From Escherichia phage A4, in the sequence record ON286972: a stretch of 64,000 bases of DNA; one strand, written 5' to 3'. A program made the translations under genes and the position numbers. Each line of letters begins with the position of its first letter. The stretch's first letter is position 1. Positions 2,381 through 61,103 of this stretch are shown piece by piece. The notes below the pieces were generated by a model. The model worked only from the letters and a program-made list of their open reading frames with translations, had not been told where the DNA came from and did no database searches.

Positions 2381-5300
2381 TTAAGCAGTACGTTGAGCAA
2401 TAAACATATCTACTACTGGACTGTATCCATCATAAATCAACTGAACGATACTCACTCCACCTGGATTTGTGTTAATTTCACCACCAACGTTTGCATAAGT
2501 TCCGTCCCAATCAAAACTATGTCCACCAGTTGTATCTTGTGCGACATAGATATAATAAGAACCAGCTTTACCACTACCAATTAAACCAGTTATTGGTGTC
2601 ATCATTACGTTTTGATCTAGTGTTATATAATACACATTTGATAGACCATCTGGTGTCCAATTACCACCAACAGCAGCAGTACTTGCAGTAACTTTAGGTG
2701 ATGGAGTAACAGCATACTTTTTAGTAGTTACACTTTCAGTTACTAAATCAGCAATATCTGTATGTAGTGTACCTTCAATAGTTACATCTTTAGCAAATGT
2801 TGCATTTTCAGCAAATGAAGATGTACCAGTAACTGTGATTGCATCAGCAGACGCAGAACCTAGTGTTACAGCACCTTTAAGGTTAGTAGCACCAGTAATT
2901 GCTGCACCACCCGCAACTACATTGAAGCCACCCGCAGTGATTTCGATACCACCAGTACTAACAGTTAGTTTCTTACCGATAGTAACAACATCAGATAGTG
3001 TAGTTGCACCAGTAACTGCTAGAGTTGTGTTAATCTTAGCACTTGCCATAGTTGCTAGGCCAGAAGTTGTAATAGTTGCAGTAGTTACTGCACCAGACGC
3101 ACTAACGTTTGCACCAGACACATCACCAGTTGTGGTGATTGCACCATCACCAGCGTTGATAGTAGCACCATTAGTTGCAATACCACCTTTCAAAGTACTC
3201 AAACCTTCAGCAGTGATTGTTGAACCAACTGTTAGGGTTGTACCAGCAGCGATAAAGGTTGTAGAAGTTAGAGATTTAACTTCAACTGCACTTGCAGATT
3301 GGTCCAGTGTACCAATAATCTTACCACTAACAGTAAAGTCGCCAGTAGTTACTGCGTTACCATTAACAGTTAGGCTGTTAGCTGTTGAACCTTGTGCACC
3401 GAATGTTGCAGCACGTGCGTGCATATCTTCATCAGTAGTAATATCCTCAACTGCGTGAATTGTGGTATTAGAAGTTAATGAGTTCAGGGAAATATCCTGA
3501 CCAGCCAAATCTACTGAACCGTTAATATTACCAGCAACAAATAGGTTACTACCAATATAAGTATCACCAACAAATTGGATAGTTTCCGGTCTTGAACTAA
3601 CTTTAGGACCGATGATAATACCTTTCGCAGAAATATCAGCTTTAGGCATAGTCACAGTAGAAGCATCAGAGATGTTCACGGATGCACCATTAACAACCAA
3701 AGCACCACCAACAGTCAAACCAGTAGTTACCGCTGCACTACCAAATGTACCTTTACCAGTTGTGGTAATTGTAGTACCAGTAATGTCACCAGCAGCAGTG
3801 ATTGCGGTATTTGCACTAACAGCCAAACCACCAGTTAGAGTGCTTAGACCAGTAACTTCTAGTGTTTCTCTGGATTTCAAGCTTTTCGCATCAACTGGAG
3901 TAGTAGATAGATCCAATGTTCCAGGGTTTAGTGTTCCATTAATGGTAACATCACCAGAAACTGTTAGTGAACTGAGAGCAGCTTCACCAGCGGTTAGTTT
4001 TCCAGTTAGATTTGTAGTACCAGTAACAGCCAAAGCACCACCAGCACTTAGAGCACCAGTAACTTCCGCACTACTTAATGTAGCTTTACCACTTGTTGAA
4101 AGAGTAGTAGTGTTAGTACCACCATTTAGAGTTGAAACACCAGTAACAGTTAGTGTAGTACCAGCAGTTACAGAACCGAGTGCAGTTAAGTTAGCACTTG
4201 CATCAACACCTTCAACGTTTAGAACAGCAGAACCTAAGTTTAGGCTACCTTCAGGTGTAAATGCACCTTTAACAGTTAGGTCACCAGTAACAACTGCATC
4301 ACCTGAAACATCAACACTTGCTAGTGTTGCTTTACCAGAAGTTTGTAGAGTTGCGGATTGAACTTCACCAGTAGTTTTGATTAATGCAGAACCTGCATCA
4401 ACCCCACCAGATAGAGTACTTAGTCCAGTAACACCTAATGTTTCACCAATTGTCAAATAACCACCAACAGTTGCGTCATTATCAACTGCTACACCAACAC
4501 CAGTAGCACTTACTTGGATTGATTTAGAAGTAATTTTACCACCAACATCAACAGTACCATCAAAAGTTGCAGCACCTACAGTATGTAGGGTTGAACTTAG
4601 TGTAGTTGCACCAGAAATTGTTGGAGCACCAGTAATTGTACCAGTAGTTAGAATTAGGTCAGTACCAACAGTAGTACTTGTAGTACTTGCTAATGAGTTA
4701 GTTTCCAAATCAGCATTTGTGATAGTCAAGTTACCATCGATAGTAACGTCATTATCAACTTGTAGTGATTTAACAGTCAAATCAGTTGTACTAAAATCAA
4801 CGGAAGTTGCAGTGAAAGCACCTTCAACGTGCAAATCACCAGTAACATCTGTTGGTTTAGCTAGTGTTATTTTATCTCCAGCACTTGTGTATGAACCAGC
4901 ACTTACTGAACCATCAACCACTGCCGCAGCAGCAACTTTCAAGTTTCCAGAAGCAACAGTCAAGCCACCTTTAGCAGTAATACCACCGACGTTTACAGTT
5001 ACTGCGTTACCAAATGTTGAAGTACCAGTAACTTCAAGTGCACCAGAAACGGTCGCTTTACCACCGACTGTTGCATCACCAGTAACATTCAATTTACCAG
5101 CGGTTGCTTCAGTACTTGTTAGTTTTGGTAGAATACTTGGTTCAGTATTTTCAGTAACAGTAATAACACCAGAAGAAGTTAGTGATTTAACAGTTAGATC
5201 TGCCGCAGCAGCATTAATTGCACCATCAACAGTTAAGCTTCCACCAATGGTTGCACCTTCAGTTGTTGTTAATGATTTAGAACTGATATCAACTGGGCTT

Positions 5301-7918
5301 AAATCTAATCCACCTTCAGGTGTAAATGTACCTTTAACAGTTAAGTCACCATGTGCAACTGTATCATTTTCTAAATTAATACCATCGGTATTAACAATAG
5401 AAGGAGTAGTTACAGAAACAGCAGAAACAGCAGCCAATGTACTTTCACCAGTAACATTTAATGTAGAAATGTTTGCTGTAGTTACTGTTGCTGTACCAGT
5501 TGTACTGTTAGTTGTAGTAATATCAGTACTTTGTAATTTTGGTAGAATGTTAGTTCCAGTAGCATCATTACTAATCACAGGACCAGCACTAGTTAAAGAT
5601 TTAACACTTACATCTGCTGCACTTAAATCTACAGTACCATCAACAGTTAGGTTTCCACCTATATGTGCACTTTCAGATACATCAAGTGTTTTAACAGTTA
5701 CATCAGCCGCACTTAGGTCAATAACACCAGCCGTTAAAGTTCCAGTAACATTCAAATCACCACCAACTGATGCATTATGATCTACACTTAGACCAGTTCC
5801 GGTTCCGGTAATTTGTGCGGAAGCTGCGGTCACTTTAGTAGTTGCTGTGATATTTGGGGCAGAGATAGTACCGTCAGATTCAATTGAACCAGTTTCTAAT
5901 GCATCAGAACCAACACCAGTAACTTTACCAGTAACTTCAACTTTCAAGCCACTAAAGAGTGCGTTTCCACCAACACTTAGATTAGTTCCCACTGCAACTT
6001 CTTCAGTTGTGGTTACAGAATTAGGTAGAATGTCTAGACCATCAACGTTTGCTTTAATTGCAGCACCAGATAGTGTACCAGTAACGTTCAAATCTTTAAC
6101 AGTGGTTGTTTGACCAACAACTTCAAATAAACCATCAACTACCGTGTTACCAACCAATGTGGTAGTACCGTCAACTGTTAGGTTTCCAGATGCAGTTACG
6201 TCAACACCTTTAACATTACCAGATGCAGTTACATCTTTAGGAGTAATGTCTTGACCAGCTAGTGTAATACCAGTTGTAGTTCCAGTAACAGTCAAATCAG
6301 TTATAGTTGTGCCTTTTAGAACGGAATCCCCATCAACTGTTAGTGTACCAGAAGCATCTAGATTAACACCACTAATATTACCAGAAGCAGTTACATCTTT
6401 AGGTGTAATATCTTGACCAGAAATGTCAGGAACAAAACCAGTAACTGTACCAGTGAAATTAACGTCTTTGAATTGAGCCTTACCATCCACATCTAGAGTT
6501 AATGTATTTGGATCTTGTACCGCATTACCAGTTATTTTCAAATAATCAAATAGGTTCAAACCTTTTGCTGTAATACCGTAGGTAGATGCAGATACATCAC
6601 CAAATGTAGCAGTTTTCAGTACTGTTAGATTTGCTGGGGTCATTAATTCAGACTGTACTTCGTTTTGTAGAATTACAGTTGGGCGTAAACCAGGAGCAGT
6701 ATATGTAAAGTTAACTTTAGCATTCGTGTCTGCTACGTTTCCACCTAAAGTGACAGATTTTAAATTAGCATTCGCAGTTGAACCAACAATATTAGATTCT
6801 AGGTTTAATGCACCTTTTAGTGTAGTTAGTTTTTCAACAACTAAATTATCCGCAGTAATATCACTTAGTACAAAGTTACCTGATAGTGTTCCAGTAATAT
6901 CCAAATCACCAACAGTAGTTTTACCAGTAATATTAGTAGTTCCATCAACTTGTAGGTCAGTTAATTGTGTTTTACCTTTAGTTACACGTAGAATTGGTGT
7001 GGTTGGATCTTGTATTGAGTTACCAGAAAGTGTTAGGTAATCAAATAGGTTCAAACCTTTTGCGGTAATACCATTGGTTGCTGCTGATACATCACCAAAT
7101 GTAGCAGTTTTAAGTACTGTTAGATTTGCTGGAGTCATTAGCTCGGACTGTACTTCGTTTTGTAGAATTACAGTTGGGCGTAATCCTGGAGCAGTGTATG
7201 CAAAGCCTAGGCGTGCAGTCGAGTCCGCTGCATTAGAACCTAAAGATACAGCTTTTATGTTTGCTACAGTATTAGTACCAATGATGTTTGATTCTAGGGT
7301 TACAGCACCTTTTAATGTAGATAGTTTTTCAACAACTAAATTATCGGTATTAACATCCCCTAATGTGAAATCACCATCTAATTTACCAGTTACAGTTAGA
7401 TTCTCAACGGTTGCACCAGTTGCAGTAATATCAGTTGCTGATACAGTTGCAATGGTTGCTTCATTAGCAGTTAATTTATCAAAGCTTGCAGTGGTTGCTG
7501 CCGCAGCAGTGAGGTTACCATTTAATGTTGTTGTACCATTAACTTCTAATGCAGAAGTGGTGGTATCTTGAAAAATTGCTTTTCCTGATGTTTGTGTAAT
7601 ATCTTTGGCAAAAGTAGAAGTGCCATTAAAAGTAGCATTGGAATTAATAGTTGCTGTATCGGAACCAGCAGTAGTATTACCAATAACTGTATTGCCAAGT
7701 ACATCCATTCCACCCTTAAGTGACGCTTTGCCTGTAACATCGAGTGTTGTGTTGATTGTTGCTTGATCTACTGTAATTGCAGTGAAGGTAGCATCAGCGA
7801 AACTAACGGTCCCCTTAATGGTTACGTTTTTATCGAAGACCGCATTACCTTTAACTGATAATTCTTTACCAACATTAGTATTACCAGTTACTGCTAGATC
7901 TGTTTTTATCGAGTACAT
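2381..7918 (-). CDS. long tail fibre protein, highly repetitive
   Basis: 1845-aa ORF rich in Thr/Gly/Val/Ala with recurring LTVDG and DLTVKSL beta-strand-like repeats and two tandem ~165-aa repeats; GGAGGG Shine-Dalgarno before the ATG. Confidence 0.6.
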   Translation of the reverse strand: MYSIKTDLAVTGNTNVGKELSVKGNAVFDKNVTIKGTVSFADATFTAITVDQATINTTLDVTGKASLKGGMDVLGNTVIGNTTAGSDTATINSNATFNGTSTFAKDITQTSGKAIFQDTTTSALEVNGTTTLNGNLTAAAATTASFDKLTANEATIATVSATDITATGATVENLTVTGKLDGDFTLGDVNTDNLVVEKLSTLKGAVTLESNIIGTNTVANIKAVSLGSNAADSTARLGFAYTAPGLRPTVILQNEVQSELMTPANLTVLKTATFGDVSAATNGITAKGLNLFDYLTLSGNSIQDPTTPILRVTKGKTQLTDLQVDGTTNITGKTTVGDLDITGTLSGNFVLSDITADNLVVEKLTTLKGALNLESNIVGSTANANLKSVTLGGNVADTNAKVNFTYTAPGLRPTVILQNEVQSELMTPANLTVLKTATFGDVSASTYGITAKGLNLFDYLKITGNAVQDPNTLTLDVDGKAQFKDVNFTGTVTGFVPDISGQDITPKDVTASGNISGVNLDASGTLTVDGDSVLKGTTITDLTVTGTTTGITLAGQDITPKDVTASGNVKGVDVTASGNLTVDGTTTLVGNTVVDGLFEVVGQTTTVKDLNVTGTLSGAAIKANVDGLDILPNSVTTTEEVAVGTNLSVGGNALFSGLKVEVTGKVTGVGSDALETGSIESDGTISAPNITATTKVTAASAQITGTGTGLSVDHNASVGGDLNVTGTLTAGVIDLSAADVTVKTLDVSESAHIGGNLTVDGTVDLSAADVSVKSLTSAGPVISNDATGTNILPKLQSTDITTTNSTTGTATVTTANISTLNVTGESTLAAVSAVSVTTPSIVNTDGINLENDTVAHGDLTVKGTFTPEGGLDLSPVDISSKSLTTTEGATIGGSLTVDGAINAAAADLTVKSLTSSGVITVTENTEPSILPKLTSTEATAGKLNVTGDATVGGKATVSGALEVTGTSTFGNAVTVNVGGITAKGGLTVASGNLKVAAAAVVDGSVSAGSYTSAGDKITLAKPTDVTGDLHVEGAFTATSVDFSTTDLTVKSLQVDNDVTIDGNLTITNADLETNSLASTTSTTVGTDLILTTGTITGAPTISGATTLSSTLHTVGAATFDGTVDVGGKITSKSIQVSATGVGVAVDNDATVGGYLTIGETLGVTGLSTLSGGVDAGSALIKTTGEVQSATLQTSGKATLASVDVSGDAVVTGDLTVKGAFTPEGSLNLGSAVLNVEGVDASANLTALGSVTAGTTLTVTGVSTLNGGTNTTTLSTSGKATLSSAEVTGALSAGGALAVTGTTNLTGKLTAGEAALSSLTVSGDVTINGTLNPGTLDLSTTPVDAKSLKSRETLEVTGLSTLTGGLAVSANTAITAAGDITGTTITTTGKGTFGSAAVTTGLTVGGALVVNGASVNISDASTVTMPKADISAKGIIIGPKVSSRPETIQFVGDTYIGSNLFVAGNINGSVDLAGQDISLNSLTSNTTIHAVEDITTDEDMHARAATFGAQGSTANSLTVNGNAVTTGDFTVSGKIIGTLDQSASAVEVKSLTSTTFIAAGTTLTVGSTITAEGLSTLKGGIATNGATINAGDGAITTTGDVSGANVSASGAVTTATITTSGLATMASAKINTTLAVTGATTLSDVVTIGKKLTVSTGGIEITAGGFNVVAGGAAITGATNLKGAVTLGSASADAITVTGTSSFAENATFAKDVTIEGTLHTDIADLVTESVTTKKYAVTPSPKVTASTAAVGGNWTPDGLSNVYYITLDQNVMMTPITGLIGSGKAGSYYIYVAQDTTGGHSFDWDGTYANVGGEINTNPGGVSIVQLIYDGYSPVVDMFIAQRTA
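6404..7396. repeat. tandem intragenic duplication (2 x ~495 bp) in the long fibre gene
   Basis: DNA near 6541-6700 and 7041-7200 is near-identical; encodes two ~165-aa copies each containing TAPGLRPTVILQNEVQSELMTPANLTVLKTATFGDVSA. Confidence 0.7.
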
Positions 7919-53958: not shown

Positions 53959-55077
53959 ATGTCTAAATTAGAAAAGCTTCTAAAAGAATCATCTCTTTCT
54001 GATGAAGCAAAACAGCTAATTCAGGAAGCATGGAATGAAGAAAAGAACACACTAGCCGCTGAAATGCGTGAAGAAATGAAAGGCCGTTATAAACAAGACC
54101 TAGCTGAACTAACAGAAGGTCTTAACACTATGGTTACTCAAGTTATCGCTGAAGAAATGGGTGCAGTATATGACGAGAAAAAACGTCTCGTTGAAGACCG
54201 CGTTACCCTCCGTAAAACTCTTGGTAACTTCTCTGAATTCGCTAATTCAGTACTAGCTGAAGAAGTTAAACAAATGCGTAACGAACGTAAACTAGTTCAA
54301 GAAAGCCTCGGTAAATTCGTTAATTTCTCTAACGGTATCCTAGCTGAAGAACTAAAAGAATTCCACAGCGAAAAACGTCAACTAGTAGAAGCTCGTGTAA
54401 AACTACTTGCTGAAGGTTCTCGTCAAATTGCAGAAGCACGTAATAACTTTATCAAACGTACCTCTGAAAGTGCTGCTAAATATATTGCAGAAACCACTCA
54501 GAAAAATCTTTACGCTTTGAAACAAGATCTTGCTGAAGCTAAACAAAATATGTTCGGTCGTAAAATCTTTGAAGCATTTGCTCAAGAATTTAATACCAAA
54601 CAATTTAATGAGAATTCACTACTTCGTTCTTTGACTGAATCAATCAAATCTAAAGAAGATGAGATTGCTCAAGTTAAACAAGAACTAAATGAATCTGTTA
54701 ACGCAGTTAAAGAAGTTCAATCAAAACTACGTATCATGGAAGATACACAGGCACGCAATGCGATTATGTCTGAATTGGTTAAGCCTTTGACTAGTCAACA
54801 AAAACAAATTATGGAATCCCTTCTAGCTGCTTCTCCAACAGAAAAGCTTAAAGAAGATTTCAGCAAGTACCATAAGTCTGTACTTAACGGTACTAAAGTA
54901 AATGAATCTGCTACCACTCGTCAAGCAGTTCAACCTTCAGCGAAGAAAACAACCCTAGCAGAAGGTAAAGTAATCACTGGCAACCGTCAGGCTATTGTTG
55001 AAAGCGAAGAAATGACCGCTGACGATATGGCATTCCTAAAAGAACTCGACGTTCTTTCTGGTATCAATAAAAAATAA
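53959..55077 (+). CDS. gp22: prohead scaffold protein (at the gp22 position)
   Basis: 372-aa charged protein with coiled-coil character, between protease and capsid genes; late promoter motif upstream. Confidence 0.6.
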   Translation: MSKLEKLLKESSLSDEAKQLIQEAWNEEKNTLAAEMREEMKGRYKQDLAELTEGLNTMVTQVIAEEMGAVYDEKKRLVEDRVTLRKTLGNFSEFANSVLAEEVKQMRNERKLVQESLGKFVNFSNGILAEELKEFHSEKRQLVEARVKLLAEGSRQIAEARNNFIKRTSESAAKYIAETTQKNLYALKQDLAEAKQNMFGRKIFEAFAQEFNTKQFNENSLLRSLTESIKSKEDEIAQVKQELNESVNAVKEVQSKLRIMEDTQARNAIMSELVKPLTSQQKQIMESLLAASPTEKLKEDFSKYHKSVLNGTKVNESATTRQAVQPSAKKTTLAEGKVITGNRQAIVESEEMTADDMAFLKELDVLSGINKK

Positions 55078-55101
55078 ACATTTTAAAGCATTTTAATAAT
55101 C

Positions 55102-55133
55102 AATTTTTTCAGTACCATAAATAATAACATACT
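55102..55133 (+). promoter_or_regulatory. conserved leader element before major capsid gene
   Basis: AATTTTTTCAGTACCATAAATAATAACATACT containing CATAAATA. Confidence 0.5.
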
Positions 55134-55169
55134 GAAAAACGAATATAACATCTTTAAGGAGATAATATA

Positions 55170-56345
55170 ATGTCACAACTACTAAATGAATCCAAATGGG
55201 TAGCAGTTAAAGAGAAACTAGTTGAAGGTCTTCAAGGTACTCGTAAATCCGTAATGGAAACCGTTCTTGATAACCATCGTAAAGTTATGCTACAAGAATC
55301 TGCAACCGCTGGTGCAACTTCTGCTGGTAACATCGCTACTCTAAACAAAGTGATTCTACCAATTATGCGTCGTGTAATGCCAACCGTTATCGCTAACGAA
55401 ATCATCGGTGTTCAACCAATGACTGGCCCAGTTGGTCAAATCCACACTCTACGTGTTCAATACGCTGACAACGCACCAGGTGTTGTAGCTGGCGAAGAAA
55501 TGCTATCTCCATTCAAGATTGCTAAATCTTACACTGGTGAGCTAAACTCTGACAACAGCAACCCACAAGCTGCTCCTACTAGCCAACTAGAAGGTACTAT
55601 GGGTCGTCGCGTTAACATCCGTATCCTACGTGAAACTGTTGAAGCGAAATCTCGTCGTCTATCTGCACGTTGGACTGTTGAATCTGCACAAGATGCACAA
55701 TCTCAACATGGTATCGACGTTGAAGCTGAACTAATGGCTGCTATCGCACAAGAAGTTACCGTTGAAATCGACCAAGAACTACTAAGCCGTCTACGTGCTC
55801 TACCAGGTGCTGCTGCTGTAACTTATGACCAATCTAAAGTAACTGGCGTTGCTACTTTCGTTGGTGATGAGCACGCTGCTCTAGCTACCCTAATCAACCG
55901 TCAAGCGAACGAAGTTGCTCGTCGTACCAAACGTGGTGCTGCGAACTGGGCTGTTGTTTCCCCAACCGCTCTAACTATTCTACAATCTGCAACTACTTCT
56001 AGCTTTGCACGTACTACTGAAGGTACTTTTGAAGCACCAACTAACGTTAAATTCGTTGGTACTCTAAACAGCACCATGCGTATCTTTGTTGATACCTACG
56101 CAAGTGACGTAGAAGATATTCTAATTGGTTATAAAGGTAATGCAGAAACTGATGCTGGTGTATTCTATTGCCCATACATCCCACTAATGGCATCTGGTAC
56201 TGTTATGGACCCTAACACTGGAGAACTCGTTACAACTTTCTTAACCAGATACGGGTATGTTCAGTTGACCGATAGCACCAGTTCACTAGGTAACGCTGCG
56301 GACTACTACAGCAAAATCGCTATCAAAAACGTTACTTTCATGTAA
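55170..56345 (+). CDS. gp23: major capsid protein gp23-like
   Basis: IANEIIGVQPMTGPVGQ, VEAKSRRLSARWTVESAQDAQSQHGIDVEAEL and GYKGNAETDAGVFYCPYIPL align with T4 gp23; strong terminator follows. 391 aa versus 521 in T4. Confidence 0.9.
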   Translation: MSQLLNESKWVAVKEKLVEGLQGTRKSVMETVLDNHRKVMLQESATAGATSAGNIATLNKVILPIMRRVMPTVIANEIIGVQPMTGPVGQIHTLRVQYADNAPGVVAGEEMLSPFKIAKSYTGELNSDNSNPQAAPTSQLEGTMGRRVNIRILRETVEAKSRRLSARWTVESAQDAQSQHGIDVEAELMAAIAQEVTVEIDQELLSRLRALPGAAAVTYDQSKVTGVATFVGDEHAALATLINRQANEVARRTKRGAANWAVVSPTALTILQSATTSSFARTTEGTFEAPTNVKFVGTLNSTMRIFVDTYASDVEDILIGYKGNAETDAGVFYCPYIPLMASGTVMDPNTGELVTTFLTRYGYVQLTDSTSSLGNAADYYSKIAIKNVTFM

Positions 56346-56368
56346 TAATAAAGAATTTAAATATACTA

Positions 56369-56398
56369 GGGACTCTTCGGAGTCCCTTTTCTTTTTTT
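56369..56398 (+). terminator. strong rho-independent terminator after major capsid gene
   Basis: GGGACTC-ttcg-GAGTCCC then TTTTCTTTTTTT. Confidence 0.8.
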
Positions 56399-56474
56399 CA
56401 GAAAAAAAGCTTGACAAGTAGATTTTAATTATATATAATTACCACATACCAAAAATCACAAAGAGACAAATAAA

Positions 56475-57581
56475 ATGCCAAAAGTAAGTATCGACAAAGA
56501 AAAATTCATTGAAGAGATGAACAACAAGTATGGAGCATATGGTGAATTTGATTTCAGCACTTTAGTATTCAAAGCCAGTAAGACAACAGTTAAATGTAAT
56601 AAATGCGGAAAAGAAAATACTAAACCTGCACTACGTCACATTTCATGTACATGTTCTTCATGTTATTCAAACATGTCACAGCGTTCGAACAACGAAAAAT
56701 TTATCAGCACGGTAGAAACTAAATTTGGAAAAGATAAATTCAAATTTGATAAACTAAATTACATTAACGCTATAACAAAAGTAACAATACTCTGTACAGA
56801 CGAAGAACATAACGATTACTTTGAAATTACACCAAACAAATTTCTTACTGGTAAGGGATGTCCTATATGTAATAAAAATGAAGCATACAGTACTGAAGAA
56901 TTCGTAGAAAAAGTAAAAGAAAATTATGGTGATTCATTAGATTTAACTAACACAGTATATGTAAATCAAAAAACTAAAGTAACTGTGTATTGTAAAGCGG
57001 GTAACCATGAATGGACAGTTGATCCGAAAACTTTACTTGTTGGTAAGACTGGTTGTGGTACATGCTCCGGTAAAGGTGGTCGCAGTACTGAACGTTTCAT
57101 TGAACTGGTATCACCTATCCATAACCATAAGTATGATTATAGTTTGGTTGAATATACTATAAGCGAGAATTATGTTGATATTGTATGTCCAACTCATGGT
57201 GTTTTCTCCCAACAACCAAAAGCACATATGGCTGGTAAAGGATGCCCATCATGTGGTGAATATGGATATCAGCCATCAAAACCTGGATATTTCTATGTTC
57301 AAAAACTAACTAATAAAGATAAGACAGTGTACAAGTATGGAATCACTGGCGATATGAAACGCCGTGTAAATGAGCAAAGTCGTCATTCTGATTTTGAACA
57401 CACTGTACTGGTAGAACGTTACTTTGAAGATGGTCATAAACCCTTAGTACTGGAAAAGTTTTTGAAACAATACATTGATAGTGGTGTAGTAACTACTGAA
57501 GAGTTGCCATCAGGATTCACAGAAACTTTTGATGCTAAGTATCTTGAAACAGTACTGGAGATTGTAAATACATTTGAATAA
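56475..57581 (+). CDS. zinc-ribbon repeat protein with C-terminal GIY-YIG-superfamily-like domain (putative free-standing endonuclease)
   Basis: Four ~60-aa modules each ending in a Cys pair (CNKCGKEN / GKGCPICN / GCGTCSG / GKGCPSCG), then GYFYVQKL...YKYGITGDMKRRVNEQSRH; motif reading only. Confidence 0.45.
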   Translation: MPKVSIDKEKFIEEMNNKYGAYGEFDFSTLVFKASKTTVKCNKCGKENTKPALRHISCTCSSCYSNMSQRSNNEKFISTVETKFGKDKFKFDKLNYINAITKVTILCTDEEHNDYFEITPNKFLTGKGCPICNKNEAYSTEEFVEKVKENYGDSLDLTNTVYVNQKTKVTVYCKAGNHEWTVDPKTLLVGKTGCGTCSGKGGRSTERFIELVSPIHNHKYDYSLVEYTISENYVDIVCPTHGVFSQQPKAHMAGKGCPSCGEYGYQPSKPGYFYVQKLTNKDKTVYKYGITGDMKRRVNEQSRHSDFEHTVLVERYFEDGHKPLVLEKFLKQYIDSGVVTTEELPSGFTETFDAKYLETVLEIVNTFE

Positions 57582-57605
57582 ACACTAAGCAGGGAAGCTT
57601 TCACT

Positions 57606-57956
57606 ATGTTAACTGTATACATTTTTAAAAAAGAAGAGTACTTAAAGAGTCAGTACTCAAAAATTGAGATCAATGTTCCTTATGGAACGTTGGTGGGTTA
57701 TGATGAGGCTACGGAGACGTTGTATTACAATGATGATCGTCTGGATTACAGTACTGATCATTTTATAGAAGATATATTGAGTACTGAATCAGAAGACATG
57801 TTGTATGAAGAATATATTGACAAATACAAAGAACGCATGTCGAAGTTACATGCTGATGCTCCAGTACTGAACACTCCTAAAACCCCATCCGAGTTTGATC
57901 CTCAAAATCCATTTCAACGCCTGATAGATGCGGGTGTAAACTTCAGAATTAGTTAA
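57606..57956 (+). CDS. hypothetical protein
   Basis: 116-aa ORF between the two GIY-YIG-like genes. Confidence 0.3.
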   Translation: MLTVYIFKKEEYLKSQYSKIEINVPYGTLVGYDEATETLYYNDDRLDYSTDHFIEDILSTESEDMLYEEYIDKYKERMSKLHADAPVLNTPKTPSEFDPQNPFQRLIDAGVNFRIS

Positions 57957-57986
57957 TAATAAATATCTCCATACTAGGAGATATCT

Positions 57987-58295
57987 ATGTCACAAATATG
58001 TTATGTAATCACTAATAGTGCATGGCCTGAATATGTAAAGATAGGCTTCACTACAAAATCAGAGATGAAAGAGCGTTTAGGTGTTTATCAGACAGCTTCA
58101 CCATTCAGGGATTTTGAGGTATACCATCAGGTTATGTTTGACGATGCACGAACAGCAGAAAAGGAAGTGCATAAGAGATTAAAGCAAATGAATGCAACAA
58201 GGCAACCTAACTCTGAATGGTTCAAGATGCCTAAAAAGTTAGCTGCAAATATTATTGATTCCGTATTGGATGATATGGAAAATGATTTACTATAG
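57987..58295 (+). CDS. T5orf172 / GIY-YIG-like domain protein
   Basis: CYVITNSAWPEYVKIGFTTKSEMKERL...VH..L...EWF fits the T5orf172-type GIY-YIG pattern; GGAG Shine-Dalgarno. Confidence 0.55.
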   Translation: MSQICYVITNSAWPEYVKIGFTTKSEMKERLGVYQTASPFRDFEVYHQVMFDDARTAEKEVHKRLKQMNATRQPNSEWFKMPKKLAANIIDSVLDDMENDLL

Positions 58296-58335
58296 ATATA
58301 AATATGATATATATTAAACAAAAAAGGATTTTTAC

Positions 58336-59946
58336 ATGAGCATAAGTTTTAATCATCCACAGAATACTGTAACCAGTACTGCGGAAAATGGTTCATTGAA
58401 TCTAATAGTACTAGGTGGTACACCAACTAATCCTCGACCAATTAGAATGAATTCTTCATCGGTAATACTACCTGTTCAGGATTTACCTATTGGTGAAGCA
58501 GGGGCGATAGTATTTGACAAAAACACTCTTACTTTGAAGTATCATGATGGTACGAACTGGATTGAAATGTTAAGTGCTGCCGATGTAGTTGCACCAATTG
58601 AACAACAGATTCAGGATATCAATTCTATACTTGGAACTAAGGTTGATAGAGTAACCTATTCAATGTCATCAATTCCAACTGCTTCTATTAGCGGAACTAC
58701 ATTGAATATTATATTCCCAACACCTTCATCAATTCAAGGAGCTAATGGTTTGTACACGAGTGCTAAACCTGGATGTATTATGCATTATAGCTTGACATCT
58801 GGACAAACCGTTGCTAGTATACGTGAACAAATGTCGGGTAGTACTGGTGGACAGAGTGGTCGTGACGGCTCCCAAGCTAAACCGTGGAAAACATCCGATG
58901 GTTGGTGTTTTGCTGATGGTATGTGGTGGCAGTGGCAAGGTGCTAATGGTACAATAACCAAACAAGTACCAAACTTGAACCGTGATGGATATTTAAGAAG
59001 TATCACCACTAGTGGTATAACCAAAACTGACGCAATTATTGCAGGTGGTGGTTCATTAACACCGAGTACTTTCACTATTCCAGACCACATTCATGGGACT
59101 GGTAAAATGTTAGGTACTAACGGTAGTGATGCGGATGATGCTGTTTTCATTAGTGGTAGAGCATGGAATGATGGCAGAGGCTATCGTGGTCCTGCAATCT
59201 TTGGTGATAAGAATGCCCGTATGGAGTTTAGTGTAGATGGTAATAATGCAGCAACTGCATTATCAACTTCACAACCAATTTATGATGATGCGAATGCCCG
59301 CACAATAACCCATAACCATACAGTAACAGGTATTGACGTACCACACTTTAACACTGCAATTTTGTATAACATTTCCGAACCATCAGTTGCGATGAGCGAA
59401 AATACTGCAAATGATCGTTTTGTTCGTAAAACTGGTGATACAATGTCTGGTGAATTATACATTGCTAACCGTGCTGGTATTCGTGGTGGTGGTGATTTGT
59501 ACTTATTCTTCCAGAACGCTAGTGGTGGTGAACGTGCAGCAGTATACTTCCAAGGTAATGAACTAAGACTTCGTGCTGGTGGTGGTGCTGTAACAGTTAA
59601 CAGTGGTGGTTCTTTGTATATTCCAGGTTCATTAACAGTTAACGCAGCATCAGCAACTGTCGGAACGAAACATATAGTACGTTCTGTTAACGGCTCAACT
59701 GCTGGTTCTGATGGTAATGTAAATATATCTGTCGGATCAGTACAAGATGTACGTTTTTTCAATCAAGATTATTATTGGCCGGGTGGTAATGAGTTATCAT
59801 GGCACTTTGTGTGTCCATCAGGTGCAGTACTAAGTGGTATAAATGTACAAGATGTTGGTAAAAACTCTGCTGATAACATTGGTGGTGTGAATTATAAATT
59901 TATACAAATTTTGGTTGATGGTAGCTGGAGAAATATAAACGGATAA
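58336..59946 (+). CDS. tail fibre protein
   Basis: DRFVRKTGDTMSGELYI fibre hallmark plus Gly-rich beta repeats; N-terminus MSISFN mirrors MTISFN of the collagen-like fibre protein. Confidence 0.5.
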   Translation: MSISFNHPQNTVTSTAENGSLNLIVLGGTPTNPRPIRMNSSSVILPVQDLPIGEAGAIVFDKNTLTLKYHDGTNWIEMLSAADVVAPIEQQIQDINSILGTKVDRVTYSMSSIPTASISGTTLNIIFPTPSSIQGANGLYTSAKPGCIMHYSLTSGQTVASIREQMSGSTGGQSGRDGSQAKPWKTSDGWCFADGMWWQWQGANGTITKQVPNLNRDGYLRSITTSGITKTDAIIAGGGSLTPSTFTIPDHIHGTGKMLGTNGSDADDAVFISGRAWNDGRGYRGPAIFGDKNARMEFSVDGNNAATALSTSQPIYDDANARTITHNHTVTGIDVPHFNTAILYNISEPSVAMSENTANDRFVRKTGDTMSGELYIANRAGIRGGGDLYLFFQNASGGERAAVYFQGNELRLRAGGGAVTVNSGGSLYIPGSLTVNAASATVGTKHIVRSVNGSTAGSDGNVNISVGSVQDVRFFNQDYYWPGGNELSWHFVCPSGAVLSGINVQDVGKNSADNIGGVNYKFIQILVDGSWRNING

Positions 59947-59949
59947 TTT

Positions 59950-60405
59950 ATGATAACTTTAAAAAATTTTAAATCATATGAAGGTAATGACCCTAAATTA
60001 AAAAAATTAAATGTTGCTTTTTTAATTTCAGAATGTGGAATGGATTGGTATGATTCTCAAAAATTATTTTCCGAAAATACAATGAAAATTGTGGTTGATA
60101 AAAATAATATAGTTTGCAATGCAACACGTGATATTACTATGATGTATCCAGTGGATGCTAGTGTATATGAAATTGAATATGATGGTGATGGACATGAACT
60201 AAGAGGAAAAATATATCATGAAGAAGATGGCACTTTTTCTGAAAGACCACCTCGTAAACCTACCCCACAACAAATATTCAATGATTTGAGTGAACGTAAA
60301 AAAGTACTGGACATGAAGAAAGAATTCGATATGTTGAGCACTGAAGAAGCTGCTGAGTACGAGAAGCTAATCTCTGATCTTAAAGAAGTACTAAATCTAC
60401 TATAA
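59950..60405 (+). CDS. hypothetical protein (possible fibre assembly chaperone by position)
   Basis: 151-aa ORF immediately after a fibre gene; 13-bp-stem terminator follows. Confidence 0.3.
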   Translation: MITLKNFKSYEGNDPKLKKLNVAFLISECGMDWYDSQKLFSENTMKIVVDKNNIVCNATRDITMMYPVDASVYEIEYDGDGHELRGKIYHEEDGTFSERPPRKPTPQQIFNDLSERKKVLDMKKEFDMLSTEEAAEYEKLISDLKEVLNLL

Positions 60406-60413
60406 TACATAAA

Positions 60414-60453
60414 ATAGACATACTACTCATTTAGGTAGTGTGTCTATTTTTAT
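60414..60453 (+). terminator. rho-independent terminator
   Basis: 13-bp stem ATAGACATACTAC/GTAGTGTGTCTAT (one wobble) then TTTTTAT. Confidence 0.6.
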
Positions 60454-60605
60454 CCCTTTAAATTGGATGTATTTTTATTAAATTAAAATAAATATCAATG
60501 CTTATGTACAGAGTAGAAAACTATTAAGTACAGTGCTCTATTTTGTTTATAAGTTTTTTTATTTTATTTTTAATAATTTACAGTCAAAAGAGGGGTTTTA
60601 TATAC

Positions 60606-61103
60606 ATGTTAATTTATAGAGGTTGGGAACAGTATTATCCAGAATCTGAATATTCATTTTCATTTTATAGAGATGAAAATGGCAATGATTGGTATGAATT
60701 GCGTGATGAATTAATGAAATTGTCCAATGTTTGTGGTTTTCTTGTAGCTTATCGCGGGGATGGAGATCCAAATAATAATTACATCGCCAGTGCTAGTTCG
60801 GAAATTGATAGACTCTCTCCTGTAAATCATGATTTGTATATTGTAGATATAAGTATCATACCTGATGATTTCTTAGAGAATCCGTGGAATTATATGTTGT
60901 ATAATGATACAATAGTTCCAAATGCAATCATGCGACAACAAGAAATAGACATGGCAGTTCGTTGGGCTGATGAAGAAATCAAGATGCTAACGACCCCACG
61001 CTTACTTCAAGCTTATCTAGCAGAAGTTCGTGCATACCGTGCAGAACTGTTGGCAATAGATTTAAATGAAACCCCATTTATTGATTTACCATTCAGACCA
61101 TAA
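60606..61103 (+). CDS. hypothetical protein
   Basis: Track ORF begins at a TTG (60543) in AT-rich spacer; ATG 60606 has an AGAGGGG Shine-Dalgarno and is taken as the start. Confidence 0.35.
   Translation: MLIYRGWEQYYPESEYSFSFYRDENGNDWYELRDELMKLSNVCGFLVAYRGDGDPNNNYIASASSEIDRLSPVNHDLYIVDISIIPDDFLENPWNYMLYNDTIVPNAIMRQQEIDMAVRWADEEIKMLTTPRLLQAYLAEVRAYRAELLAIDLNETPFIDLPFRP

Follow-up and report, generated by a model that had tools for sequence, protein, structure and literature searches.

A putative T5orf172 homing endonuclease cassette beside two resident genes at the capsid-fibre junction of Escherichia phage A4

The GIY-YIG homing endonucleases of phage T4 (I-TevI and the Seg proteins) are selfish genes, free-standing or intron-borne, which lie near essential genes and whose homing co-converts flanking markers. 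Here we describe a locus of Escherichia phage A4 (sequence record ON286972) in which two genes of the T5orf172 type, a branch of the GIY-YIG superfamily, lie close together. The stretch analysed is 64,000 nucleotides (nt) long and is called the window; all positions refer to it unless a fetched locus is named. Three open reading frames (ORFs), A, B and C, are found between the major capsid gene and a tail-fibre gene. ORF A and its promoter (about 56397-57605) probably form a free-standing homing endonuclease cassette of the T5orf172 family, of which ORFs B and C are not part.

The described T5orf172 homing endonucleases share a common plan. Zinc fingers of the CapR, DUF723 or DUF4379 type, often repeated, are present in 87% of 229 such proteins (Barth, Dunham & Seed 2023, PMC10448857). 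Capsid genes occur in 31% of their neighbourhoods, the genes are enriched at boundaries of genetic exchange, and both recombination between repeats and domain swapping have been described among them (PMC10448857). ORF A resembles the group that includes ICP1 Gp53, Gp121, Gp130, Gp165 and Gp174 (PMC10448857, PHROG 681). Like them it has N-terminal zinc-finger modules arranged as "beads on a string" and a C-terminal T5orf172 domain, is free-standing, and lies beside a capsid gene at a boundary of genetic exchange. A tblastn search also ties it to ICP1 tcgB, a "putative homing endonuclease". ORF A differs from the Vibrio-phage members in its host lineage, a Rak2-like jumbo coliphage, in its four modules and in an identity of ~30%. 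Rak2-like phages are not mentioned in the main text of the 2023 paper (PMC10448857), and literature searches returned no paper on Asteriusvirus homing endonucleases at the capsid/B locus.

Three other proteins provide useful comparisons. ICP1 Odn (Gp88) is a T5orf172 nuclease that cuts DNA, an activity abolished by the substitution E180A (Barth et al. 2021, PMC8263062). No other T5orf172 protein has been demonstrated to cleave DNA (PMC8263062), and ORF A shares with Odn the C-terminal T5orf172 domain and a conserved Arg and Glu. However, Odn recognises DNA through a RepA_N domain, targets a satellite replication origin and acts in defence rather than homing, whereas ORF A has zinc fingers. The PLE-encoded CapR is a satellite repressor of the ICP1 capsid operon (Netter et al. 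2021, PMC8096241). ORF A shares a homologous zinc-finger fold (CxxC...CxC type) and a capsid-operon link with CapR, but CapR is satellite-encoded and related to one domain of these endonucleases only; ORF A is phage-encoded and its nuclease domain is intact. ORF A is also unlike I-TevI, in which the nuclease is N-terminal and DNA is bound by helix-turn-helix and minor-groove modules; ORF A has its nuclease at the C-terminus, a zinc-finger array, and no match at E<=1 to the canonical GIY-YIG family PF01541.

Presence, absence and movement of the cassette

By megablast the window belongs to the Rak2-like jumbo phages of enterobacteria (Asteriusvirus), with Escherichia phage BF17 as the top match, followed by 121Q, PBECO4 and others. 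BF17 carries the cassette and fEgEco12 has an empty slot in its place. These two genomes are ~99.8% identical upstream (8 mismatches in 4.2 kb) and ~99% identical downstream, and they differ by a ~1.2-kb cassette that substitutes the entire intergenic region up to the ATG of ORF B. A second difference lies in the capsid gene itself. Nineteen mismatches fall inside 90 nt, within the last ~125 nt of the gene; all are synonymous and the encoded proteins are identical.

The comparison of the window with BF17 gives the history of the same segment. Here the cassette is ~98.5% identical. Divergence is ~1.3-2% over 56201-57380, which spans the capsid 3' end, the promoter and residues 1-302 of ORF A. 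Within the capsid gene it is 2.1% at 56205-56345 and 6.1% in the remaining (5') part. Rightwards it rises to 14% in the last 66 codons of ORF A, 18% in ORF B and 23% in ORF C. Synonymous divergence (dS) from BF17 is 0.23 for the major capsid gene, 0.15 for ORF A, 1.3 for ORF B and 2.3 for ORF C. The low divergence of the cassette against its diverged flanks indicates recent movement of the cassette, with a short stretch of the capsid gene, from one lineage to another, and places both on a recombination boundary. The last ~140 nt of the capsid gene are likely a co-conversion tract. Direct repeats flanking the cassette were not found, which fits recombination-based homing and not transposition. 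One patch within the otherwise ~99% identical cassette, at 57047-57113 on the boundary between modules 3 and 4, holds 12 differences from BF17 in 67 nt, perhaps the trace of a micro-conversion between repeats or between alleles.

The slot begins at the intrinsic terminator of the capsid gene. All 13 genomes compared keep the terminator hairpin, and the whole interval from there to the start codon of ORF B is variable. The slot is empty in PBECO4, fEgEco12, CBB (Mimasvirus) and Yen9-04 (Eneladusvirus), in which ORFs B and C are still present. A four-repeat gene of the A type (84-97% identity to ORF A) occupies it in 12 records, and EJP2 has an A-like gene of 61% identity. A three-repeat variant that lacks module 1 (58-68% identity) is found in another set of 12 records, including slurp01 and Munch. 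Other T5orf172/zinc-finger genes, of 25-31% identity, are present in JNE01, Turkey5 and RaK2-type phages, and ph0011 carries an unrelated DUF7487/phrog_3339 "homing endonuclease". Even within one species, that of slurp01 and PBECO4, occupancy differs. The similarity of the slot proteins does not track that of the capsid proteins: the JNE01 capsid is 98% identical and its slot protein 25%, and the values for EJP2 are 92% and 61%.

The three-repeat allele of slurp01 (2501-3424 of the fetched locus) is chimeric. Its modules 2 and 3 are Munch-like, and in module 4 and the nuclease domain it is all but identical to the 121Q allele. Together with the coexistence of four- and three-repeat alleles, this chimera mirrors the module variation and swapping of the published T5orf172 homing endonucleases. 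In PBECO4 a paralogous phrog_681 endonuclease of 379 residues (gp306; 2446-3585 of the fetched locus) is located elsewhere, two small ORFs past the endonuclease V gene. Since the PBECO4 slot is empty yet a paralogue is found at another locus, the phrog_681-type family occupies several sites in these genomes.

The cassette promoter is the sole 12/12 match to the sigma-70 consensus within 55000-60600, and hexamers resembling -35 and -10 elements also follow the terminator in the slot occupants of 121Q, JNE01, ph0011 and RaK2. We infer the nuclease activity of ORF A, the position of its target site and the timing of its expression, and propose the following course of events. Host RNA polymerase would transcribe the cassette early from its consensus promoter. 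The four zinc-finger modules would jointly read a long DNA site in a "beads-on-a-string" manner, and the C-terminal GIY-YIG-type domain would cut the DNA of cassette-free relatives present in the same infected cell. The cut would fall at or near the 3' end of the capsid gene or in the capsid/B intergenic region; the capsid 3' end is a candidate location that may hold the target site. Recombinational repair from a cassette-bearing genome would then give the recipient the cassette together with the final ~125-140 nt of the capsid gene.

The ORF A protein and the weight of a regulatory alternative

The four modules of ORF A are each ~65 residues long and consist of a helix, a C/H knuckle and a CxxC knuckle, in that order. 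Six alignment columns (E, F, C, P, C and C) are invariant over modules 1-4. In Smith-Waterman comparisons of the module pairs with shuffled sequences, z-scores range from 3.5 to 13, and for five of the six pairs the observed score was reached in 0 of 500 shuffles. Degenerate repeats with a period of 195 nt are visible in the DNA. The Pfam matches of the modules, all slightly below cut-off, are to DUF4379 ("treble clef"; residues 159-200), DUF723 (residues 221-261) and a HypA-like zinc ribbon. Among 47 homologues the Cys/His zinc ligands are invariant; DUF4379 is matched by 39, DUF723 by 21 and CapR (PF21817) by 10 of them.

The assignment of the nuclease domain is built on three lines of evidence. 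The phrog_681 "endonuclease" profile covers the full length of ORF A (1e-76). Of the 47 full-length homologues, 21 match T5orf172 and 21 match MUG113, with best values of 2.6e-9 and 6.8e-12. Finally, in profile-profile alignment (hhalign) the domain matches the ORF C family with a probability of 93% (E 2.8e-7); YKYGIT lines up with VKIGFT, R with R, LE with AE, and TETF with SEWF. We therefore regard the T5orf172 assignment as secure despite a sub-threshold Pfam score. BLASTP of the C-terminal 105 residues against ORF C returned no alignment, and the homology is visible by profile-profile comparison only. For neither ORF A nor ORF C was a PF01541 match listed at E<=1, so the likeness to canonical GIY-YIG nucleases is at the level of superfamily or fold. 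Searches of sequences in the Protein Data Bank (phmmer) gave nothing meaningful for A or C, and NCBIfam had no matches for A, B or C.

Six residues of the domain (Y274, K287, G289, R297, E327 and E350) are invariant in the 47 homologues, down to 27% identity; they include the Tyr of the first strand and the Arg of helix 1. Arg297 and Glu350 are the likely catalytic residues; Glu327 is also invariant. In the AlphaFold model of ORF A the C-terminal domain has a beta-beta-alpha-beta-alpha topology, from which a Glu equivalent to E180 of Odn and E75 of I-TevI can be proposed. The predicted local distance difference test score of the model is 86.6, and its predicted template modelling score is low, which a beads-on-a-string arrangement would lead one to expect. 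ORF A has 1057 homologues; tblastn matches it to 917 phage records at E<=1e-5, and 104 of these matches cover 80% or more of its length. The ratio of nonsynonymous to synonymous divergence (dN/dS) against BF17 and 121Q is 0.10, which indicates a functional protein under purifying selection.

The first-pass annotation, made from the sequence without database searches, had proposed both the four repeat modules and a C-terminal segment (GYFYVQKL...YKYGITG...RR...) of the T5orf172 type. Both proposals agree with the shuffle statistics and profile evidence above. It had also taken the fusion of zinc ribbons to such a domain for an unfamiliar layout, which is not the case: this is the dominant published architecture (PMC10448857) and that of phrog_681.

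Several points weigh against the reading of ORF A as a homing endonuclease, or limit it. ORF A itself scores 17.5 bits against Pfam T5orf172, under the gathering threshold of 20. A dN/dS of 0.10 is also compatible with a domesticated function. Cleavage and homing by ORF A or its close homologues are predictions. The linkage between the cassette and the capsid allele is not universal, as the three-repeat variant of slurp01 adjoins the capsid allele of fEgEco12, whose slot is empty. The capsid 3' allele had been considered as a marker of the cleavage site or of immunity, and was dropped when 3 of 180 positions proved private to it among 13 genomes. Given these few private positions and the allele pairing in slurp01, the synonymous patch is read as co-conversion or cassette-linked recombination, which locates neither the cleavage site nor an immunity allele.

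One such domesticated function would be that of a regulator, whose zinc fingers would bind near the capsid operon and repress or time late or capsid transcription, or act on the promoter of ORF A itself; the action of CapR on ICP1 and that of I-TevI as an autorepressor are precedents. The modules belong to the CapR homology group, in which PF21817 is matched by the 10 homologues noted above; CapR represses a phage capsid operon (PMC8096241), ORF A directly follows the capsid gene, and the dN/dS value would suit such a role. However, a CapR-like protein would be a DNA-binding zinc-finger protein without a functional nuclease domain, and ORF A keeps the full domain with catalytic-type residues, its Tyr, Arg and Glu being invariant across the homologues. 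The gene is also dispensable, as the four genomes with an empty slot attest, unrelated endonucleases stand in its place in other relatives, and the cassette was laterally transferred recently. We consider regulation in place of homing unlikely. ORF A may have a dual role in homing and regulation.

Table 1. Features of the capsid-fibre junction in the window
Feature	Position	Strand	Description
Major capsid gene	55170-56345		Gp23-type (Pfam Gp23, 5e-90); upstream of ORF A
Capsid-gene 3' end, last ~140 nt	56205-56345	+	allele linked to the four-repeat cassette
Capsid-gene intrinsic terminator	56368-56396	+	GGGACTCTTCGGAGTCCC hairpin (56368-56387) then T-run; left edge of variable slot
Cassette promoter	56411-56439	+	sigma-70 type, TTGACA-17 nt-TATAAT
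ORF A	56475-57581	+	368 residues; putative free-standing T5orf172-family homing endonuclease gene (phrog_681, variable presence)
Four tandem zinc-finger modules	56490-57263	+	CapR/DUF723/DUF4379 type; module alignment, shuffle z-scores, Pfam
Module 1	56490-56672	+	residues ~6-66
Module 2	56685-56882	+	residues ~71-136
Module 3	56886-57077	+	residues ~138-201
Module 4	57078-57263	+	residues ~202-263
Nuclease domain of ORF A	57264-57578	+	T5orf172 (GIY-YIG superfamily); C-terminal 105 residues
ORF B	57606-57956	+	116 residues; acidic core protein, clade-specific, resident
ORF C	57987-58295	+	102 residues; stand-alone T5orf172 domain without DNA-binding domain, resident, vertically inherited
Tail-fibre gene	58336-59946		phrog_13229, 7e-216; downstream of ORF C

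The resident genes ORF B and ORF C

These phages share the gene order capsid-B-C-fibre, and the intergenic slot between the capsid gene and B takes several different inserts, of which ORF A is one. From these comparisons B and C are placed outside the mobile element, as part of a conserved Rak2-like arrangement. Both are kept at this locus in five genera, and strong purifying selection acts on them. A prohead protease and a scaffold-like protein are encoded 5' of the major capsid gene, and fibre-assembly proteins 3' of the tail fibre. The 121Q counterparts of A, B and C are named "endonuclease", "hypothetical protein" and "GIY-YIG nuclease family protein" in RefSeq. In the 64-kb window tblastn found no further copies of A, B or C.

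ORF B is a single-copy gene found in exactly 70 phage records, each from a Rak2-like jumbo phage, and has only 57 clusters in 5.8 billion proteins. Its identity outside the genus is 27-36%. The protein is very acidic, as read from its sequence, and has no Pfam family. A 100% identical protein is encoded on a 358,987-bp NCBI contig labelled Escherichia coli. A TGAAACG/TATA promoter motif has been described in phage CBB, where it precedes ORFs of the CBB_258-329 region, many of them with DNA-synthesis functions (PMC5259590). CBB_258 is the ORF B homologue, and a TGAAACG ... TATAAT motif that matches this promoter class lies upstream of ORF B in CBB and Yen9-04. This motif hints at shared regulation of B and C with genes of DNA metabolism and not with late structural genes.

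ORF C is nuclease domain throughout its 102 residues and has no DNA-binding region. It matches PF10544 at 9e-13 (49 bits, with a cut-off of 20) over profile positions 2-99 of 101, and MUG113 at 1.5e-12. The motifs CYVI, KIGFT, R, AEKE and EW(F/Y) are conserved. The 62 phage records that have it at 60% identity or more contain one copy each. Across the loci retrieved from five genera (Asteriusvirus, Mimasvirus, Eneladusvirus, and those of phages Munch and EJP2) it holds the same position with 71-87% protein identity; among the genes compared only the capsid protein is more conserved, and ORF B is less so. Its dS is saturated and its dN is ~0.1-0.2. In a library of 1.84 billion representatives, 915 relatives are found at E<=1e-3, mostly short proteins of 90-230 residues. 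Only in the RaK2-type Klebsiella phages does an unrelated 244-residue ORF (RaK2 ORF097; 4913-5647 of the fetched locus) with no Pfam match stand in place of ORF C, and ORF B and an A-like endonuclease are kept.

Conserved T5orf172/"Uri" proteins of jumbo phages with a T4-like core have been proposed to play a role in recombination or to resemble Holliday-junction resolvases (Iyer et al. 2021, PMC7824862). ORF C is similar in being a conserved T5orf172 protein of such a clade, and may be one of the two proteins cited there. By analogy ORF C, which lacks a specificity domain, most likely works for the phage's own benefit; it could, for example, be a structure-specific nuclease or one for recombination or repair. 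It could also be imagined as a mobile or decaying remnant of a homing endonuclease that has lost its DNA-binding part. It shares its nuclease family with ORF A, beyond the clade it is closest to small T5orf172 ORFs that T5-like phages carry in their variable tRNA region, and it is replaced in the RaK2-type phages. Such a remnant is very unlikely, given a single copy at a constant position in 62 records and five genera, an identity exceeded only by that of the capsid protein, and the retention of all motif residues in the face of saturated dS. Neither the sporadic presence nor the DNA-recognition domain of a homing endonuclease is found in ORF C.

Least likely of all is that the three genes work as one system, such as a pair of nucleases plus an acidic inhibitor or adaptor that act in exclusion or anti-defence: A, B and C are contiguous on one strand with short spacers and no terminator detected between them, B is very acidic like some nuclease inhibitors, and the ORF C domain resembles the T5orf172 domains of the candidate defence proteins PDC-S57 and PD-Lambda-1, but many genomes have B and C without A, RaK2 has B and an A-like gene without C, the dS values (0.15 for A and 1.3-2.3 for B and C against BF17) record separate histories, and searches detected no likeness of B to known inhibitors. 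A defence-system reading was likewise rejected when PADLOC gave only a domain-level similarity for C and nothing for A or B.

These results bear on the remaining claims of the first-pass annotation. The three ORFs do lie between the capsid and fibre genes, and ORF C is of the T5orf172 type that had been read from its sequence. The suggestion of mobility divides: it is supported for ORF A, which is present or absent in near-identical genomes and more conserved than its flanks, and it fails for ORF C, whose conservation at this locus across five genera was the very observation named in advance as arguing against mobility. The pairing of two nuclease genes around a 116-residue protein is incidental, since B and C persist where the slot is empty.

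The fibre region and implications of the locus

To the right of the 3' end of ORF A (B, C, the fibre and a duplicated chaperone) the window is far more diverged from all relatives than to the left. Two fibre-assembly-like ORFs stand in tandem at 59950-60405 and 60543-61103 (phrog_136, 5e-25 and 1e-13), where relatives annotate one. For the segment 60250-61000, alignment to the nine relatives compared is poor or absent, with Munch the only one to reach ~55-61%, and the C-terminal half of the fibre (about 59050-59950) is only ~45-69% identical to all nine. The tandem ORFs, the poor alignment and the divergent fibre half together suggest that a host-range cassette was swapped at the fibre/assembly-protein region of the window. 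It could be speculated that the capsid-fibre junction is a maintained recombination hotspot, in which ORF C, perhaps with B, and the invaded slot would start DNA breaks and so drive the exchange of the tail-fibre/chaperone host-range cassette between co-infecting phages. We consider this broader model unlikely.

The homing endonuclease reading changes the picture of the locus from an odd nuclease pair to one selfish cassette beside two resident genes. ORF A would be a further T5orf172 homing endonuclease of the published type, and the trio a coincidence of insertion. The slot is a multiply invaded homing endonuclease hotspot directly behind the major capsid gene, in jumbo coliphages that are widely studied and are candidates for therapy. 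In BF17 and fEgEco12 nature provides two near-isogenic phages, one bearing the cassette and one lacking it, which are suited to measuring T5orf172 homing and co-conversion. Cassettes of this kind create mosaic boundaries beside capsid and tail-fibre genes and can mislead capsid-based phylogenies. They may also help host-range modules pass between phages.

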